A DNA stretch of 64,000 nt from Dictyostelium discoideum. Its lineage: Eukaryota. The DNA lies in NCBI GenBank assembly GCA_000004695.1, contig CM000153.2, forward strand, positions 4,960,001-5,024,000, read 5' to 3'. Positions 1-41,936 of the stretch are shown piece by piece (position 1 is the first letter of the stretch; every line of letters starts with the position of its first letter). Both the position numbers and the translations under genes were made by a program. The notes under the pieces are model-generated. The model did no database searches. It saw only the letters and a program-made list of their open reading frames with translations, and was not told where the DNA came from.

Positions 1-351
1 ATAATGGGATTGTGTTGTTTTTGGATATTGAAAAAAAATAAAAATAAAAAATAAAAATAAATAAATAAAAAATTGAATCTCAATACAATGATCCAAATCA
101 CCAACTTTTTTTTATTTTTTATTTTTTTTTATTTTTTTTTTTTATTTTTTTAATTTTTTTTTTTTTTCACTCACACAATATTAATTATTTATAGATTTTT
201 CAATCTGTAGAATTTTACACTTACAACAATATAAAGATTTATCCCCAAATCCAAAAAAAAAAGCAATTAACTATTATTTGTTTTATTTTTTGAATATATA
301 ATTCTTTTTAACTTTTTTTTTTCTTCTTTATTTTTCTATTTTTAAAAAAGA

Positions 352-417
352 ATGGAAAATCAAAAAAAAAATAATTTTAATCAAATTGATTATTTTAGAT
401 GGGCCGACTATAGTAAA

Positions 418-493
<76 letters not shown>

Positions 494-1665
494 TAAATAA
501 TAATATTGATAATAATAATAGTTTTTATCGTTTCATTAGTCCTCCATTTAATAAAATTAATAATAATAATAATGCTAACAATTTCAATAATATAAATAAT
601 AATAATAATAATAATTTTAATAATTATCAACTAAATGATGGCAATAAGATTTCAATTAATAATATTTTAAATGATAATACAACCACTACCAATACATCAG
701 CAAATCAAAACTCTGCTAACACAAACAAAACATATAATTTCTCAAAAAATGAAAATGGAATTGTTTATGAAATTGATAATTTTATATTGGATTCCAATTT
801 AGTTCGTGAACAACCATTCAATAATTTTAATTACCTCAATATAATAAATAATATTCAAAATTTCCTTCAATTAATTTCAGGAAAGGTAGCTATTTAATTT
901 AATAATAGTTAATAATGATATTAAATAAATACTAATTAAATTATACAAAATAATAAGGTAAATTTATTGAATGTTATTTTGGGCATATTGGTTGATGATG
1001 TGAATAGATATTCAGTAAATCCGAATAGTATGTCAATTATTCCATCTGATAATTTTCCAACACCTCAGTTACCACTTGAAACTAATACTGATTTAAATAA
1101 CACTTCAGATTGCTCATCAACTACCTTTTCATCACCTCCATCTTCTGCATTTAATTCACCAAATCTCCAGAATGATTATACTCAACCTCAAAATCAAAAA
1201 TCACAATCCTCAACAATTGTTAAAAAAAATAGTAGTAAAAGCAAATCAAAAAACAATAAACAATCAAAAGATGATGGAGAAACCAATGATGGTGAATCAC
1301 CTGAAATTGAGGAAAAAAGAGTTATAAGATTAGATATGAATCTTAATCCAAATCCAACTATACCAAAAAGAGGTAGACCACTAAAAGTAAGACCATTTGA
1401 GTGCTCCATTTGTAAAATAAAATGTTCAATATATTGGAGAAGAATATTGATTAATGAAGTTCGTACCTCTGTATGTAATGCATGTGGTCTTAGAACAATG
1501 AAAAAAACTAAAAAGGAAAATATAGAAAAAAAAAAAAATAAAATCAGTAATATTTTAAATGACCATAATTCTGAAATAGATAACCAAATAATTATTTATC
1601 TTAATCAAAAAAAAACAACCACTACTACAACAACCACAACAACTTCAAGCACAAATAACCTAAAC

Positions 1666-1745
<80 letters not shown>

Positions 1746-1794
1746 TAACAATAATAATGATAACAATAATAATGATAACAATAATAATGATAAC

Positions 1795-1856
<62 letters not shown>

Positions 1857-1950
1857 TAATTATAATGATAGTATTTATTCAAGATTGTATAGTGATGATT
1901 ATGAAGATGAATATTATGAAGGTGAAGAATATGAAAATGAAGACGAGTAA
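352..1950 (+). CDS. GATA-type zinc-finger transcription factor, Asn/Thr-rich; proposed model join(352..885,958..1950)
   Basis: ATG at 352. Two same-frame ORFs (352..897 and 967..1950) are separated by a stop at 898. A 72-nt AT-rich interval 886..957 (GTAGCT...TAAG) removes the stop in phase 0. The C-terminal part has a GATA finger CSIC-x20-CNAC followed by a basic KKTKKE tail, and a long (AAT)n poly-Asn tract. The C-terminus is paralogous to the genes at 3061 and 8885 (RGRPxKxxPxxCxxC...YWR...CNxCGL...NILN). Confidence 0.55.
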
Positions 1951-2324
1951 CTATTTAATGGTGGTTCTTTAAAAATTTGGTTGTTTTTTTTTTTATTATT
2001 AATAAATTTGTAATTTTTAAAAAATATATTATAAATCGAATTTATTTTTCACTTTTTTATATTAATTAATCTGGATTTCTAATTAAATTTTTAATTCAAT
2101 ATAAAGTTTATTTTTTTTAATTTAAAAGTGAGAAAATAAAAAAATAAATAATATTAAGTTTATTAAAATACATAATATAAATCATTTTTTTTTTTTTATA
2201 TTTGAATTTGTGGTGTATATATCATTTATGAAAATAGAGAAAATTTAAAAAAAAAAAAAGAAGAAAAAATCAAAAATCAAAATTAAAATGGTTGGATAAG
2301 AAATATTTAAAACTGGTCTTAATG

Positions 2325-2377
<53 letters not shown>

Positions 2378-2582
2378 AAAACAAATTTAAATATTTGGAC
2401 CTATCTCTATTTGTTTTTTTTTTTTTTTAAATCTTTTAAAATTTTTTTTTTATTAAAATAAAATAAATGTTTTTTTTTTATTGACTCTATAAACAAAAAT
2501 ATTATTCAAAACAAAAAAAAAATAAAAAAATAAAAAAAAAAAAAATAAAAAAAATTGAAATTTTATTGATAACCACCCTTTT

Positions 2583-2613
<31 letters not shown>

Positions 2614-3001
2614 AAAAAAAATTTTGATCTTAAAAATAATAAAAAAATGGATTTTAAAAATATTAAAAAAATGATCCAAAAAAAAAAAAAAAATATTATT
2701 ACAACCCTTAAATAAAATTTGTAAAAGGTAAAAAAATTTTTTTCAAAAAAAAAAAAAAAAGTTAAATCTCTAATGAAAGTCCACCCAAAATTCTTTTAAA
2801 AAATTCAAAAAAAAATTTTAATCCTTAAAAATACCTATATTTATCCCAAACCCCCAAATTTAAATAAAATAAATTTAAAATAATTTAAAAAAAAAGGGGA
2901 AATTTTTTTTTGGTTTTTTTTTTTCAAAAATTTTTTTTTTTACCCCCAATTCATTAAATTTTTTTTCACAACCCCTTTCCAAACCCATTTTTTTTTTCCC
3001 C

Positions 3002-3044
<43 letters not shown>

Positions 3045-3060
3045 ATAATAATTTTTTAAA

Positions 3061-3221
3061 ATGGTTAAAAGAAATAATAATAATTCAATTAATTATGAAA
3101 TAAATAAAATAATTCCAGTACAAACAACCAAAGATATAAATTCCAAAAGAGAAAAAGAAATCCATGTGCAAATTAAAAAAATCAATTCTAATAGAACTTT
3201 TGTTTATGAAAATGTATTTAT

Positions 3222-3263
<42 letters not shown>

Positions 3264-3308
3264 CTTATTATAATTTAATTATTGATATTAATCTTTTTAT
3301 TTTTTAAA

Positions 3309-3343
<35 letters not shown>

Positions 3344-4091
3344 CTTTTTTTTTAAGATTCATAGACACATCTTATTGGTTTTAGAGAACTTTGGAAGTAC
3401 AAAGAATCTTTTTCTCGTCCTTTCAGACTGTCTTGCAACATTGAAAGGTTATGATTCTCAAGAGTACCAATTACAACTTGAGCTACAAACCATTTCTGAT
3501 TCAACTACAACTACTACAACAAACACTGTTTCCACTGTTGCCACTGCTTCCACTTCCAAAACTGCCACTTCCAAAAATGTCATTTCAAATATTGAAAACA
3601 ATACTAATAAGAGTCAACCATTGGAATCAAATGATTTAACTCCACCATCATCTAAATCATCTAATTCTTCCCCTTCAACATCTCCAAGCAAAAGAGTTTC
3701 CAAATCTAAAACAAGGGTAACAAAGAAACCAAACCAAGTTATTTCCACTAGTTCTTCTGGTGAAACTGAAAATCTTACTACAACCAGTACTGCTGATACC
3801 ACTGCTACCACTGATACTGCTGATACAACCGATGGCACAAATACAAGAACTAGCAATACATCCAGTGATGATACCACTACAGAATCAACCAAGAAAAGAG
3901 GTAGACCATCTAAAATTCAACCAGACAGTTGCTATGTTTGTAGAAGAACCTTTACTTCATATTGGAGAAAAGGTATCTTCAATGACCAAAATGAAGATCT
4001 TTGCAATCCTTGTGGTTTGAATTATTTGAAAAAAGGAAAAAAAGAACAAATTTCAAAAAATCAAAATAGTATCCACAATATTTTAAACTAA
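3061..4091 (+). CDS. GATA-type zinc-finger transcription factor (paralog of gene at 8885..10116); model join(3061..3213,3357..4091)
   Basis: Exon 1 runs from ATG 3061 to ...RTFVYEN, then GTATTT at 3214. The intron is 143 nt of poly-T ending TTTAAG at 3356. Exon 2 in phase 0 starts IHRHILLVLEN..., which parallels AHRHLKLALEN of the paralog. The C-terminus carries CYVC-x20-CNPC and GLNYLKKGKKEQ...HNILN. Confidence 0.7.
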
Positions 4092-36052: not shown

Positions 36053-36460
<408 letters not shown>

Positions 36461-37762: not shown

Positions 37763-38810
37763 TAATTTTAAATTTAAATAAAGAATCTAATAGGTTTTTT
37801 TTTTTAAAGAGATAATTCATGGGTTTTAGTATTAGTTTTTTATTTTTTAAAAATTTAATTTTTTTTTTTTGAAAATTAAATTTAATAAAAATAAAAATAA
37901 AAATTAAAAAAAAAAAAAATTAATCCATTTTAATCAATTTTTTTTTTGGGAAAAAAAAAAAGAAAAAAAAAAAAAAATAAAATAATTAGGACTGATTTGA
38001 ATTAAAAAAAGTAAAAAGTATAATTTTTTTTTTTTTTGGAAATCAAGATCAAAAAATGTTACTTTTTTTGGGTTTACCAAATTTGGTTGATCTTTTATTA
38101 AAAAAAAAAAAAAAAAAAATTTCAATTGGAATTTTTTAGTATAAAAAGACAAAAAATTATTCATTATTTTTAAAAAACAAATATAATTTCAAAAATAAAA
38201 AAAATTAAAATAGAAATTTTACATTTTAGGAAAAAAGAAAATGTAAAAAAAAAAAAAAAATTATAATTCTGAATAGACAATATTAAAAGGTAATTTTAAT
38301 TTTAATTTTCTTATTTTCAAATATTTTATACAAATAAATAACTTACCATTCTCTTTCCAATTATTAGGCAGAATGTAAAATTTCTTTTTGTCCTTAAACT
38401 GTCCCAAAAGGTGTAATTAAATGTCAATACTATAGTTTTTATTTTTTAGAAAAAAAAGATAGTCTTATTAAGTGGTAGTTTATTTAGTATTGGTCGGTAC
38501 TAATTCAATGTCTGAGAATCAAAGGATTTTATTTTTTTTATAAAATAAATCTTTCAATTCTCAGGCTTTGCTAATTGGTAGATTGGTATTAAACAGCTTT
38601 CACTTAATGATAATATTTTTAAATTAAAAATAAACTATTTGATTGTCGACAATAAACTATAATTTAACATGGTAGTTTGGACTTAATGCAAAGGTAAACT
38701 ATAACAATACTTTAATTCCAATACTATTTAATAAATATTGCAATTTTCTAATTATATATTATTTTATAAATTTTTAGGTTGATCCAAGAATTCAATACCT
38801 GTCAACAATA

Positions 38811-38945
38811 CTATTAAATAAAATAAATTAAAATAAATTAAAATAAAATAAATTAAAATAAATTAAAACAACAAACGAAACAAAACGAAACAAAACGAAA
38901 CGAAACAAAACAAAACAAAACAAAATAAAATAAAATAAAATAAAA
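38811..38945. repeat. Minisatellite of AAATAAATTAAAAT and (AAACG/AAAAC)n units
   Basis: Direct reading. The caaaacgaaa unit is repeated about 8 times. Confidence 0.8.
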
Positions 38946-39192
38946 CAATCATTTTAATATTTTAAATTAATTTATTTAAATTCTTAAAAGTTCATTTTTT
39001 AATTCAATCCATTTCCATTATAATTTTAAAAAGTTCTTCATATTAAAGAGATTAATAAGATGAAGAGATTAATCTTTAATAAAAGGAAGAGATTAATCTT
39101 CTCTTAAAATGATGTTGGTTTATAAAATAGAAAAAGTAAGGTTTTTATTGAATGGGGACGATTTTTTCTTATAAAAAATTGAATTTCATCAA

Positions 39193-39266
39193 GCCTTAGT
39201 AGCTCAGTTGGTACGAGCGTGAGACTGAAGATCTTAAGGTCGCTGGTTCGATCCCGGCCTGAGGCA
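39193..39266 (+). tRNA. tRNA-Phe (anticodon GAA)
   Basis: The cloverleaf folds cleanly. The acceptor GCCTTAG pairs with CTGAGGC (one G-U pair), the D arm is GCTC/GAGC, and the anticodon stem TGAGA/TCTTA carries loop CTGAAGA. The T arm GCTGG-TTCGATC-CCGGC holds the B box GGTTCGATCC. The discriminator is A, and the A box is TAGCTCAGTTGG. Confidence 0.9.
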
Positions 39267-39299
39267 ATTTTTTTTAATAAAAAACCAATTGAGATCATA

Positions 39300-39310
39300 G
39301 GTTCGATTCT
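39300..39310 (+). promoter_or_regulatory. External B box (ex-B, GGTTCGATTCT) ~35 bp downstream of tRNA-Phe
   Basis: It is a second copy of the pol III B-box consensus outside the tRNA. This is typical of Dictyostelium tRNA genes and of TRE3 landing sites. Confidence 0.55.
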
Positions 39311-39331
39311 AGTTTAATAAATCCAAAAATT

Positions 39332-39347
39332 GAAAAAGGTTCTTTTA
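39332..39347 (+). repeat. Target-site duplication, left copy (GAAAAAGGTTCTTTTA)
   Basis: It is an identical 16-mer to 40788..40803 and directly abuts the 5'-truncated end of the element. Confidence 0.75.
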
Positions 39348-40625
39348 AAGTGACCAAAGCAATCAAAACTTCAAGTATCCACAAATCTCCAGGTTTAGAC
39401 GGTATCAATGCACTATTCTACAAGTACCACATCAACTCAATAGCAAGAATATTGACTATAGCTTTCAACGACCTCCTCACAAATAAGAAAGAAATCCCCA
39501 CAAAATTCAAAGAAGGAGTAATAACAACAATATTCAAAAAAGGAGATGAACTAAACATTTCAAATAGAAGACCAATCACCCTTCTCAATACAGATTACAA
39601 AATTTTAAGCAAAATTCTCAACAGTAGATTATTAGATATCACCAGTAAAATTATCAACAAATTTCAAAACGGCTTTGTTCCAAACAGGTTCATCCAAGAC
39701 AATATTCAGATCATGAAGGAAGTAATAGAAATAAGTAACAAAAGAAAGAACAATACACTCATTACCTTTTACGATTTTAACAAAGCATTCGATTCAATCA
39801 GCCACAAGAGTATCACAAGAACATTAGAGCATATTGGTATCCCCCCAAAATTCACAGCGATCCTACTAAACCTACTCAAAGATACTAAAAACAAAATAAA
39901 GATCAACGACTTTTTAGTCAATGGAATAACAATCAGAAGAGGAACAAAACAAGGAGACCCAATATCACCAACAATCTTAGCTCTAGTTTTAGAACCACTT
40001 CTAATAGATATCATCAATGATAATCAATCAAGAGANNNNNNNNNNNNNNNNNNNNNNNNNNNNNNNNNNNNNNNNNNNNNNNNNNNNNNNNNNNNNNNNN
40101 NNNNNNNNNNNNNNNNNNNNNNNNNNNNNNNNNNNTAAAAAATTTAATACAATTGAATAATAAAAATATAACCGTTTAACAAACACCGCCGAAAAGACAC
40201 AAGGACATTCATTCCTTGAAGGTCTGATCACAGGTAAAAAAAAAAAAAAAAATAATCATAATATATCTAAAATTTAAAAAAAAAAAAAAATCCACAGATG
40301 GTCAATGGATACCTTAGACATATCAAAATACAACAGAACTGAGAGAATCTTCCCCAATCTCATAGGAATAATAGCACACCAATTATGGAAGATAATCTGT
40401 CACAAATTGTTCAACACTGATGAAAGCAAACCAGAGCCAAAATTCGAACAAAAGGTCATAGAAACAGAATTACTAAATCTCATCGAAACTGAAAAATTCA
40501 TCACACTAAAGAAAATCAAACACGACGAAGCAATACTAAAACACCAATCAAGATCTTCACAAATACAAATTCAACAAAGCCTGGCAAACCCCAGCAGCTC
40601 CGAACCCTCTTCCAATTTAAGTAGT

Positions 40626-40671
<46 letters not shown>

Positions 40672-40787
40672 GTTTAAAAAATTTAATACAATTGAATAAT
40701 AAAAATAAAATCGTTTAACAAACACCGCCGAAAAGACACAAGGACATTCCTTGAAGGTCTGATCACAGGTAAAAAAAAAAAAAAAAA
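39348..40787 (+). mobile_element. 5'-truncated tRNA-gene-targeted non-LTR retrotransposon (TRE3-like), possibly two tandem or nested 3' fragments; contains a 100-N assembly gap (40036..40135)
   Basis: 39350..40035 encodes an RT domain (FYDFNKAFDSISH, TKQGDPISPTIL, PGLDGI, RPITLLNTDYK). After the gap comes a C-module plus A16 at 40136..40246. Then 40290..40660 encodes an ORF2 C-terminal end, with poly-A at 40627..40660, a second C-module at 40672..40770 (about 90% identical to the first) and A17. The whole element sits 81 bp downstream of the tRNA in the same orientation. Confidence 0.75.
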
Positions 40788-40803
40788 GAAAAAGGTTCTT
40801 TTA
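40788..40803 (+). repeat. Target-site duplication, right copy (GAAAAAGGTTCTTTTA)
   Basis: It follows the terminal poly-A of the element. The flanking sequences of the two copies are unrelated. Confidence 0.75.
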
Positions 40804-41936
40804 TTAATGGCTATAAACACAGAATTGGAGATGACTAGCCTCAAAATAACACCACAAACCTATATATATAGGTTAGAATTTCTAACCAGTCAATATCAAA
40901 AAAAGAAATAATTTTTAACCACTTTTTGTGCAAAAAAAAAAATAAAAAATAAAAAATAAAAAATACAGTCTGTGGTGTTTATTTTTGTAACCAAAGCTTA
41001 AAAATTATGGTGTTTTAAAAAAAAAAAAAGAAAAAGAATGTTCTATTTTTTAATATTTGTCAAGGGTTCTCAGCTTAGTGGTTTAATTTAAATAGTCTTT
41101 AGTGTTCTTTATTTTACAATTAAGATTTAAGGAGGAATTATTAATTTACAATATTTTTCTTTTTAAAAATTTTAAATCTTATGGGTTTCTTAGTGAATTA
41201 TCAGATTGGAAAAATTTTGTTATTACTTGATAGCCTGAAATATTAATAGCACCATAATTTGTAAGACCACTTGAAATTGGTTTACCAATTGTAGCATTAT
41301 AGCTTTTTTTATTTAGAGTTAAATTTGAAACTATATCTTTAATTATAATAATAATTAGTAAAAGAGTAAAAATTAATTTTAAAAACCATATAAACTTACT
41401 TAAAATTGTCATTTTTCTTCTTTGGAAACAAATAATAAAAATAATAAAATAAAAAAAATAAAAAATATTTATATCCCTTTAATAAATTTTTATTTTTTTT
41501 AATTATATCTTTTAATATTTATTTTTTTGATAATTTTTTTTTTTAAAAAATTATCTTTTTTTTTGTTACAGTTAATTAGTTAAATAAAATTTTCAATGAT
41601 AAAAAAGGTTTAAAAACATAGATGATCCAATTATGGAAGGAGTCAAAAAAAAAAAAATAATAACATTAATGAAAAACGGTTTAAAAAAAGATTATATCTA
41701 TTAAAAATAACAGTTAACTCTATCATTTATTAGAATGGGTAGCAACATATATTTCATCAGAATAATTTTAAAATTTTTAAATCGAGATTGTGTGTTTTTA
41801 TATTTTTTTTTTTAATATATTTTTTTTTTTTTAATTATTTAAATAAATATTTTTTTATTTGTTTGGGGGTTATATTATTATTTTTTTTATTTTTTTTATT
41901 TATTAATTTAATTATTATTTATTAATTTAAAACTTT

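Follow-up and report, generated by a model that had tools for sequence, protein, structure and literature searches.

Retrotransposons next to tRNA genes in Dictyostelium

Two groups of tRNA gene-dependent retrotransposons without long terminal repeats (non-LTR) are of immediate interest here, and both are known from Dictyostelium discoideum. TRE3 elements integrate 40-150 bp downstream of tRNA genes, oriented like the gene and with the use of an external B box (PMC5911963), and their distance downstream of tRNA genes has been described as always about 100 bp (PMC5006619). TRE5 elements, in contrast, are found about 50 bp upstream of tRNA genes and in the opposite orientation (PMC5911963; PMC5006619). 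The DNA downstream of tRNA genes is also the target of Skipper-2, a chromovirus (PMC5006619). Here we describe an insertion downstream of a tRNA-Phe gene in a stretch of 64,000 nucleotides of D. discoideum DNA (assembly GCA_000004695.1, contig CM000153.2, positions 4,960,001 to 5,024,000 of the forward strand; hereafter the window, whose own numbering is used throughout). The insertion is a non-LTR element of the TRE3 type, that is, LINE-1 (L1)-like, with a second open reading frame (ORF2) that encodes an apurinic/apyrimidinic endonuclease (APE), a reverse transcriptase (RT) and a zinc knuckle. It consists of two copies enclosed by one target-site duplication (TSD), and the entry of both copies in a single integration event is the reading that we favour, if only by a little. 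Other loci are cited by L numbers and unnamed ORF2 proteins by P numbers.

When compared with these systems, the insertion is an ordinary one of the TRE3 type; for D. discoideum, both the TRE families and the way in which they target tRNA genes with external B boxes have been described before. It has in common with TRE3 the host, the APE-RT-zinc-knuckle ORF2, the -1 reading frame, the A-tail, the frequent 5' truncation and a TSD of 13-16 bp, as well as integration 60-143 bp downstream from a tRNA gene, in tRNA orientation and just past an external B box; no behavioural difference is apparent. As for the depth of the lineage, its ORF2 is 35% identical to that of the abundant downstream-type element P0135, which is probably TRE3-A. 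The likeness to TRE5 (TRE5-A, TRE5-B and TRE5-C; DRE) is limited to an L1-like ORF2 (33.5% identity), the host and the dependence on tRNA genes, whereas TRE5-type copies are oppositely oriented, lie about 49 bp upstream of the gene and make up a clade of their own (100% support). Skipper-2 differs more profoundly, as it is an LTR retrotransposon with an integrase, while the present element has no LTR and carries a poly(A) tail and an APE-RT ORF2. The sole mildly unusual aspect of the locus is therefore the bipartite insert within one TSD, for which well-known LINE-1 parallels exist.

The tRNA-Phe target and the composite insert

A single tRNA gene, tRNA-Phe(GAA), was identified across the window by ARAGORN and Rfam in agreement, in DNA whose G+C content of 21% is Dictyostelium-like. 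The B-box pattern GGTTCGANYC matches only twice in the 64 kb, at the internal B box of this gene and at the external B box (ex-B), with 0.06 matches expected from shuffled sequences. The ex-B is spaced 33 nt from the end of the tRNA gene and 22 nt from the TSD, and the first base of the element follows the end of tRNA-Phe after exactly 81 nt. The insert reads in the orientation of the tRNA gene, and the element would have made use of the B box in the tRNA-Phe locus. The 16-mer that makes up the TSD occurs as two exact copies in the window; three further matches, each with 2 mismatches, lie far off. These results bear out the main points of a preliminary description of the locus, which had named the tRNA gene with its ex-B, the common orientation, the 81-bp spacing and the perfect 16-bp TSD; tRNA predictions, a pattern search and exact coordinates now stand behind these points. 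The 16-mer, which as a common satellite would have spoken against that description, is not a satellite, and the assignment to a 5'-truncated TRE3-like non-LTR element past the ex-B is strengthened by its position, by the architecture of ORF2 and by four further copies downstream of tRNA genes.

Between the two TSD copies lie two 5'-truncated copies in head-to-tail order, namely E1, of about 2.3 kb, and E2, of about 0.5 kb (Table 1). One TSD brackets both of them, and no copy of GAAAAAGGTTCTTTTA is present between E1 and E2. E1 extends from codon 430 of ORF2 through its A17 tail. Its RT frame is uninterrupted from 39350 to 40035 and open up to the assembly gap (Pfam RVT_1, E = 1e-25), and this 5' part matches residues 430-655 of protein P0126 with 99% identity (tblastn). 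The remainder of E1 is provided by locus L002 (GCA_054883475.1, CM142510.1), a D. discoideum assembly that is gapless at this site and shows the same 81-bp spacing from the tRNA gene. The place of window positions 40032-40135 is taken in L002 by 1,512 bp, in which what is left of the E1 ORF2, shortened by a 13-bp deletion, is followed by its stop codon, by GTAGTAGT and by an internal A-run, before the 3' untranslated region (UTR) begins; the gap closure called for in the preliminary description is thereby achieved. In the last 15-20 bases or so before the gap (40017-40035) the two assemblies disagree, with ...GATAATCAATCAAGAGA in the window and ...GATAATACAATCAAAGGCTTC in L002, and they also show an A/T difference at 39979. 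The stretch 40017-40035 looks like a low-quality contig end, and the apparent end of the ORF, 'NDNQSR', is for this reason spurious.

The 3' UTR of E1 is 93-94% identical to those of L001 and E2 and carries two private variants, TATAACC and a duplication of CATT. At the junction of the two copies the order is E1 UTR-A17-TAATCATAATATATCTAAAATTT-A15-TCCACAGATGG, where the last 4 A's of the A15 run may be the element's own CAAAATCCACAG. With up to 3 errors allowed, the 23-nt spacer between the A-runs gave no other match in the window or in loci L001-L009. The possibility that it represents a degenerate start of the 3' UTR was rejected, as its local alignment score of 13 compares with 11.2 ± 1.2 for shuffled sequences, of which 64 out of 500 reach 13. 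E2 is 97% identical to L001 and differs from the consensus of L013 by 1 mismatch and a 2-nt deletion; the 'SSSKKKK' end of the ORF at 40305-40667 is a frameshift artefact of this deletion.

The two copies are similar but not the same. Their 3' UTRs (40136-40235 and 40675-40770) are 94% identical, with 2 substitutions and a 4-nt CATT indel in 100 columns, and over the 3'-terminal 0.5 kb of E1 there are 4 substitutions, 2 of them synonymous in ORF2, and 2 indels, that is, the CATT duplication in E1 and the 2-nt deletion in E2. Owing to these substitutions and indels, E1 and E2 can be assigned to different source copies or lineages. The preliminary description was thus right in recognizing two similar 3' ends, each with its own poly(A), although it put their identity at about 90%, and its label 'C-module' is a TRE5-A term for what are here the 3' UTRs of the element. 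Similarly, the end of an ORF2 does lie between the two 3' ends, but its 'sandwiched' appearance loses its oddity with the gap closed by L002, since it is the start of the shorter second copy, E2.

Table 1. Features of the tRNA-Phe locus and of the composite insert (window coordinates)
Feature	Position	Strand	Basis or remark
tRNA-Phe(GAA), RNA polymerase III (pol III) target	39193-39266	+	ARAGORN; Rfam RF00005, 62.5 bits; B-box pattern search
Internal B box of tRNA-Phe, GGTTCGATCC	39245-39254	+	
External B box (ex-B), GGTTCGATTC	39300-39309	+	GGTTCGANYC pattern search
Left 16-bp TSD copy, GAAAAAGGTTCTTTTA	39332-39347	+	Exact match
E1, 5' part from ORF2 codon 430 (RT domain)	39348-40035	+	RVT_1; tblastn; comparison with L002
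100-N assembly gap	40036-40135	.	1,512 bp in L002
E1, 3' UTR	40136-40235	+	
E1, A17 tail	40236-40252	+	
23-nt spacer, TAATCATAATATATCTAAAATTT	40253-40275	+	Unique, AT-rich, not element-derived
A15 run, 5' junction of E2	40276-40290	+	
E2	40291-40787	+	Second 5'-truncated copy, about 0.5 kb
E2, end of ORF2, about 110 last codons	40291-40620	+	2-nt frameshifting deletion; native stop 40618-40620
E2, after the stop: GTAGTAGT		+	
E2, internal A34	40629-40662	+	
E2, 3' UTR	40663-40770	+	
E2, A17 tail	40771-40787	+	
Right 16-bp TSD copy, GAAAAAGGTTCTTTTA	40788-40803	+	Exact match

Origin of the composite insert

Bipartite inserts of LINE elements can arise either by read-through transcription past the 3' end or by a jump of the RT to a second polyadenylated RNA, as exemplified by chimeric L1 retrocopies and by the end-to-end template jumping of R2. 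The present insert resembles the products of LINE-1 3' transduction and of RT template switching in being bipartite and co-linear, with an internal A-run and one TSD. It differs from the LINE-1 and R2 chimeras in that the second piece is a remnant of the same family and in that the source locus, or the switch, is here only proposed. In the searchable literature, neither 3' transduction nor template switching was found described for TRE3.

Judging from the published behaviour of the family, the pol III factors TFIIIC and TFIIIB, bound at B boxes that include the ex-B, would bring the endonuclease to the DNA about 80 bp past the gene. There the bottom strand would be nicked at the left edge of GAAAAAGGTTCTTTTA, and target-primed reverse transcription would copy the RNA of the element, starting at its poly(A) end. 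A cut in the top strand 16 bp further on would then give rise to the 16-bp duplication. By parsimony, we estimate at about 0.55 the probability that both copies entered in one such event, by either read-through or template switching. In the version that we tentatively prefer, the two copies would derive from a read-through transcript of a tandem source array. The source locus would have held an active E1-type element directly upstream of an older E2-type remnant, behind another tRNA gene, and the transcript would have run through the encoded A-tail of E1 and a short genomic spacer, to end at the 3' end of the remnant; this would amount to 3' transduction of a neighbouring remnant. Read-through is the version that fits the 23-nt spacer best, because a unique spacer that is not derived from the element resembles the flank of a source locus. 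In the other version, less favoured and on its own rather doubtful, the RT would have left the E2 RNA and continued at the poly(A) end of another RNA. There is an A-microhomology of 4 nt at the end of E2 that could have served such a switch, but an extra assumption is needed to account for the 23-mer.

Arrays of these elements are present at other tRNA genes. In L006 (5380-7640, D. citrinum), tRNA-Asp has behind it, at 60 bp, a young copy of 1.8 kb enclosed by its own TSD of 13 bp, TAAAAAATAATGA. A spacer of about 45 nt separates this copy from an older piece of the family, a 3' fragment with 73% identity and an A-tail of its own; this locus is a clear example of successive insertions in which the newer copy is the tRNA-proximal one. 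In L008 (1-7300), two elements of the P0135 type (probably TRE3-A) are arranged head-to-tail with a 41-nt spacer and A12 between them, and the TSD of the distal one is (A)TAATGCAT. L009 (1190-7435) shows a further combination, in which a single tRNA-Ala lies between a TRE5-type element, upstream of it and head-to-head, and a TRE3-type one, truncated and 126 bp downstream. The head-to-tail arrays of L006 and L008, with their short unique spacers, represent the source arrangement that the read-through model needs.

That both copies came in together is suggested by the single TSD around them and by the position of the composite, which as a whole lies at the canonical distance from the tRNA gene, whereas a separate insertion of E2 would be 2.4 kb away. 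In addition, L006 and L008 are loci at which two insertions are legible as independent events, and there the copy nearer to the tRNA gene is enclosed by a TSD of its own. The alternative that deserves most attention, although we consider it unlikely, is that of successive insertions: E1 would have integrated first (x-E1-tail-x, where x stands for GAAAAAGGTTCTTTTA) and E2 later, in the same orientation and into the terminal A-run of E1, so that an all-A TSD would be invisible. Multiple TRE insertions at one tRNA gene are indeed common (L006, L008, L009, L012; PMC5006619). The derivation of E1 and E2 from different source copies and the A-runs on both sides of E2 (A15 and A17) agree with such a history, and the implied bottom-strand nick, TTTT/AAAT at the boundary of spacer and A-run, resembles what is generally known of L1-type nick sites. 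However, E2 would then sit at a distance of about 2.4 kb from the tRNA gene, which is beyond the 40-150 bp reported for TRE3, and no B-box-like motif is found at a suitable distance from it, the sole match to GTTCAANNC being located about 400 bp upstream of the tail. Given a usual TSD of 13-16 bp and the A counts (15 on the left, 17 on the right), the own tail of E2 would have to be about 4 A's or fewer, and the 23-nt spacer inside the tail of E1 would require a separate explanation. Moreover, at L006 and L008 the younger copy is tRNA-proximal with its own TSD, unlike E2 in this scheme.

Some observations weigh against entry in a single event. Among the called proteins, no source locus with the frameshifted tail of E2 was found, the sole match being the L002 copy of the same locus. 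An insertion into the terminal A-run of E1 would hide its TSD among the A's and produce the same picture, and A-runs are good targets for L1-type endonucleases, as established for L1 and Alu. Finally, among the alleles compared, none has one copy only or a clean empty site, L003 and L004 being divergent. The two possibilities raised in the preliminary description, successive insertions or template jumping, each retain some probability; the read-through transcript of a tandem source array was not on its list.

Two more histories were weighed, and neither appears probable. In one of them E2 came first (x-E2-x, with 36 extra nt at its 5' junction) and E1 integrated later between the left TSD and the extra nucleotides, with a duplication of 2 bp (TA) or none. 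Both events would then have taken place at the canonical tRNA distance, TA is found both as the last two bases of x and as the first two of the spacer, and target-site deletions or irregular junctions are frequent in 5'-truncated TRE5-A integrations (PMC3159450). Yet E1 would have had to hit precisely the edge of the older TSD and to do so with a TSD of 0-2 bp, compared with 13-16 bp in four insertions of the family, and the 5' filler of E2 would be unusually long, so that we regard this order of events as very unlikely. In the other, to which we give hardly any credence, a single insertion had its 3'-terminal 0.5 kb or so duplicated later, by replication slippage or unequal exchange, or else the repeat is an assembly artefact near the gap. 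The two 3' regions are 98-99% alike and the 100-N gap lies in the middle of the repeat, as such explanations would have it. Slippage, however, would join the tail directly to TCCACAG, instead of which a unique 23-nt spacer lies between two A-runs; 4 substitutions and 2 indels distinguish the copies, despite a perfect TSD and flanks that are identical between assemblies, and 2 of the differences are synonymous, as distinct lineages, both active, would show. The gapless L002 has the identical composite, which excludes an assembly artefact, and the TSD on both contigs shows that one site is flanked. Other models make up the remainder of the probability. Two candidates were examined and set aside: a motif like a B box at the E1 end, to which a second insertion might have been drawn, where the resemblance of AGGTCTGATCACAGG to the ex-B region stems mostly from the TSD and does not make a B box, and repeated nicking at one site, which should leave three copies of x, while no x is present between E1 and E2.

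The locus in other assemblies

The host of the locus is D. discoideum. A 129-aa glyoxalase ORF at 36053-36442, 2.8 kb upstream, is identical to D. discoideum AX4 EAL64026.1 and to proteins of three new assemblies. An origin of the window from D. citrinum, to which the first best protein match pointed (97%), was rejected in view of flanks nearly identical to those of a D. discoideum assembly and the AX4-identical glyoxalase; the element family is common to both species. The flanks of the window and of L002 are 99.5-99.9% identical, with homopolymer lengths that differ on both sides. In particular, the right flank together with E2 shows zero substitutions over 4.9 kb, and the left flank shows 12 substitutions over 4.0 kb. 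Eleven of these are clustered in 94 bp of AT-rich intergenic DNA at 37850-37943, with essentially none in the surrounding 9 kb or so; a small inversion, gene conversion or trouble with the local sequencing may have produced the cluster.

Two further assemblies named D. discoideum, L003 and L004, have the identical glyoxalase and tRNA-Phe gene (the latter identical in L002 as well) and keep the ex-B as GGTTCGAATC, but they carry no element. The comparison with an empty site that the preliminary description had proposed is available in part: the target itself is changed in these alleles by an indel of about 85 bp, and only AAAAAGG of the 16-mer is recognizable. Since the flanks of L003 and L004, 85-92% identical to the window, have diverged by 8-15% and the target carries this indel, the pre-integration sequence can be recovered only in part. 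As to the age of the insertion, E1 differs by 0.47% and E2 by 0.3% from the D. discoideum ORF2 contig L013, and this low divergence, together with the perfect TSD, indicates a recent insertion.

The surroundings of the target show some features of their own. The segment of about 85 bp that follows directly after the right TSD copy (40804-40890) is the one missing in the element-free L003 and L004; it contains, at 40871-40887, a near-perfect palindrome, GGTTAGAA-T-TTCTAACC, and could be either an indel or the footprint of another element. At 38806-38950, about 250-390 bp upstream of tRNA-Phe, mini- and microsatellites rich in AT are found, first (AAATAAAATAAATTAAAAT)n and then (AAACG/AAACA)n. 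On a larger scale, between 36000 and 46500, intergenic DNA and neighbouring genes are only 80-93% identical between the window and L003/L004, despite the identical glyoxalase protein, and genes with Tgr-like Ig/TIG domains are found further along these L003 and L004 loci. The region seems to be unusually polymorphic, or else the isolates seem to be cryptic species.

The element family and its classification

A consensus of three copies (E1, L001 and L006) yields one uninterrupted ORF2 frame that is 99% identical to P0126, a protein of 1,147 aa with the domains Exo_endo_phos (PF03372) and RVT_1 (PF00078) and a C-terminal CX2C...HX4C zinc knuckle, CKICGHLFRDPYSHLFTLC. In L013, the contig that encodes P0126, the stop codon of ORF1 overlaps the ATG of ORF2 (TAATG), with ORF2 in the -1 frame; ORF1 is visible there as its last 32 codons only, and the contig ends 6 nt past the ORF2 stop, hence without 3' flank.

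Apart from the window, four copies of the family, all from D. citrinum, lie downstream of tRNA genes: L001 at 66 bp from tRNA-Gln, past a GGTTCGAATCC ex-B box and with a TSD of 14 bp; L006 at 60 bp from tRNA-Asp and L010 at 143 bp from tRNA-Arg, each with a TSD of 13 bp; and L012 at about 77 bp from tRNA-Arg, where the TSD was not read. All five tRNA-adjacent copies, that of the window included, have the orientation of the tRNA gene. In the window and L001, the ex-B precedes the TSD by 8-22 nt; in L010 it is placed further upstream. Among the copies found, no member of the family is located upstream of a tRNA gene. Short RT-region fragments without a 3' end occur in L005 (5263-5631) and L007 (4937-5358), with 97% and 80% identity to the family at the protein level, respectively; they are 300-550 bp from tRNA genes, in the opposite orientation, off the simple rule of downstream insertion in the same orientation, and they may be rearranged remnants. 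In L010, the tRNA-Arg(TCT) gene with the TRE3-type fragment downstream has about 570 bp upstream of it, on the minus strand (167-3529), an LTR-retrotransposon pol ORF of 1,120 aa (protease, RT, RNase H and integrase), which may belong to a DGLT-A-like or Skipper-like element that targets the tRNA.

The ORF2 proteins used for comparison are unnamed D. discoideum proteins, which were typed by their own genomic position. P0142, with a 451-aa ORF1 upstream, and tRNA-Ala are arranged head-to-head in L009, with the element upstream of the gene; in L008, a truncated copy of the same type starts 49 bp upstream of tRNA-Thr in the opposite orientation. This is the behaviour of TRE5. P0135 is found 126 bp downstream of the same tRNA-Ala (L009) and 85 bp downstream of tRNA-Phe (L005), in tRNA orientation, which is the behaviour of TRE3. 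A neighbour-joining tree (893 trimmed columns, 100 bootstraps) resolves three clades with 100% support each, namely the present lineage, which includes AX4 DDB_G0269266 (62% identity), a clade of P0135, P0138 and P0153, and a TRE5-like clade (P0142, P0139/P0160 and P0157).

Placed outside the TRE5-like clade, the element is, as far as its sequence tells, clearly not a TRE5. Its status as TRE3 rests mainly on behaviour and architecture. Against the TRE3 assignment it has to be said that the present lineage joins the downstream-type P0135 clade at only 44% bootstrap and that the ORF2 identities are nearly equal, 35.1% to P0135 of the downstream type and 33.5% to P0142 of the upstream type. On the question of whether ORF2 might be nearer to TRE5, which the preliminary description had raised, the tree keeps ORF2 out of the TRE5-like clade, but the raw identities hardly separate the two groups. 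Seven ORF2 lineages were seen in D. discoideum, three of them TRE5-like and four others, a count that equals the published three TRE5 and four TRE3 elements (TRE3-A to TRE3-D). From this count, the element would probably be TRE3-C or TRE3-D.

Significance

The locus raises no new question on targeting itself. It is a clean polymorphic example of pol III-directed integration and, with a gap-closed allele and insert-free alleles at hand, a useful case for teaching and annotation. With a chance slightly above even, the composite stems from one event of target-primed reverse transcription and would then be the first documented TRE3 case of 3' transduction or template switching. If so, TRE3 transcripts or the TRE3 RT can carry a second 3' end, as in LINE-1, and tandem TRE arrays behind tRNA genes could be copied as units, which would bear on the growth of TRE clusters at the tRNA genes of Dictyostelium.

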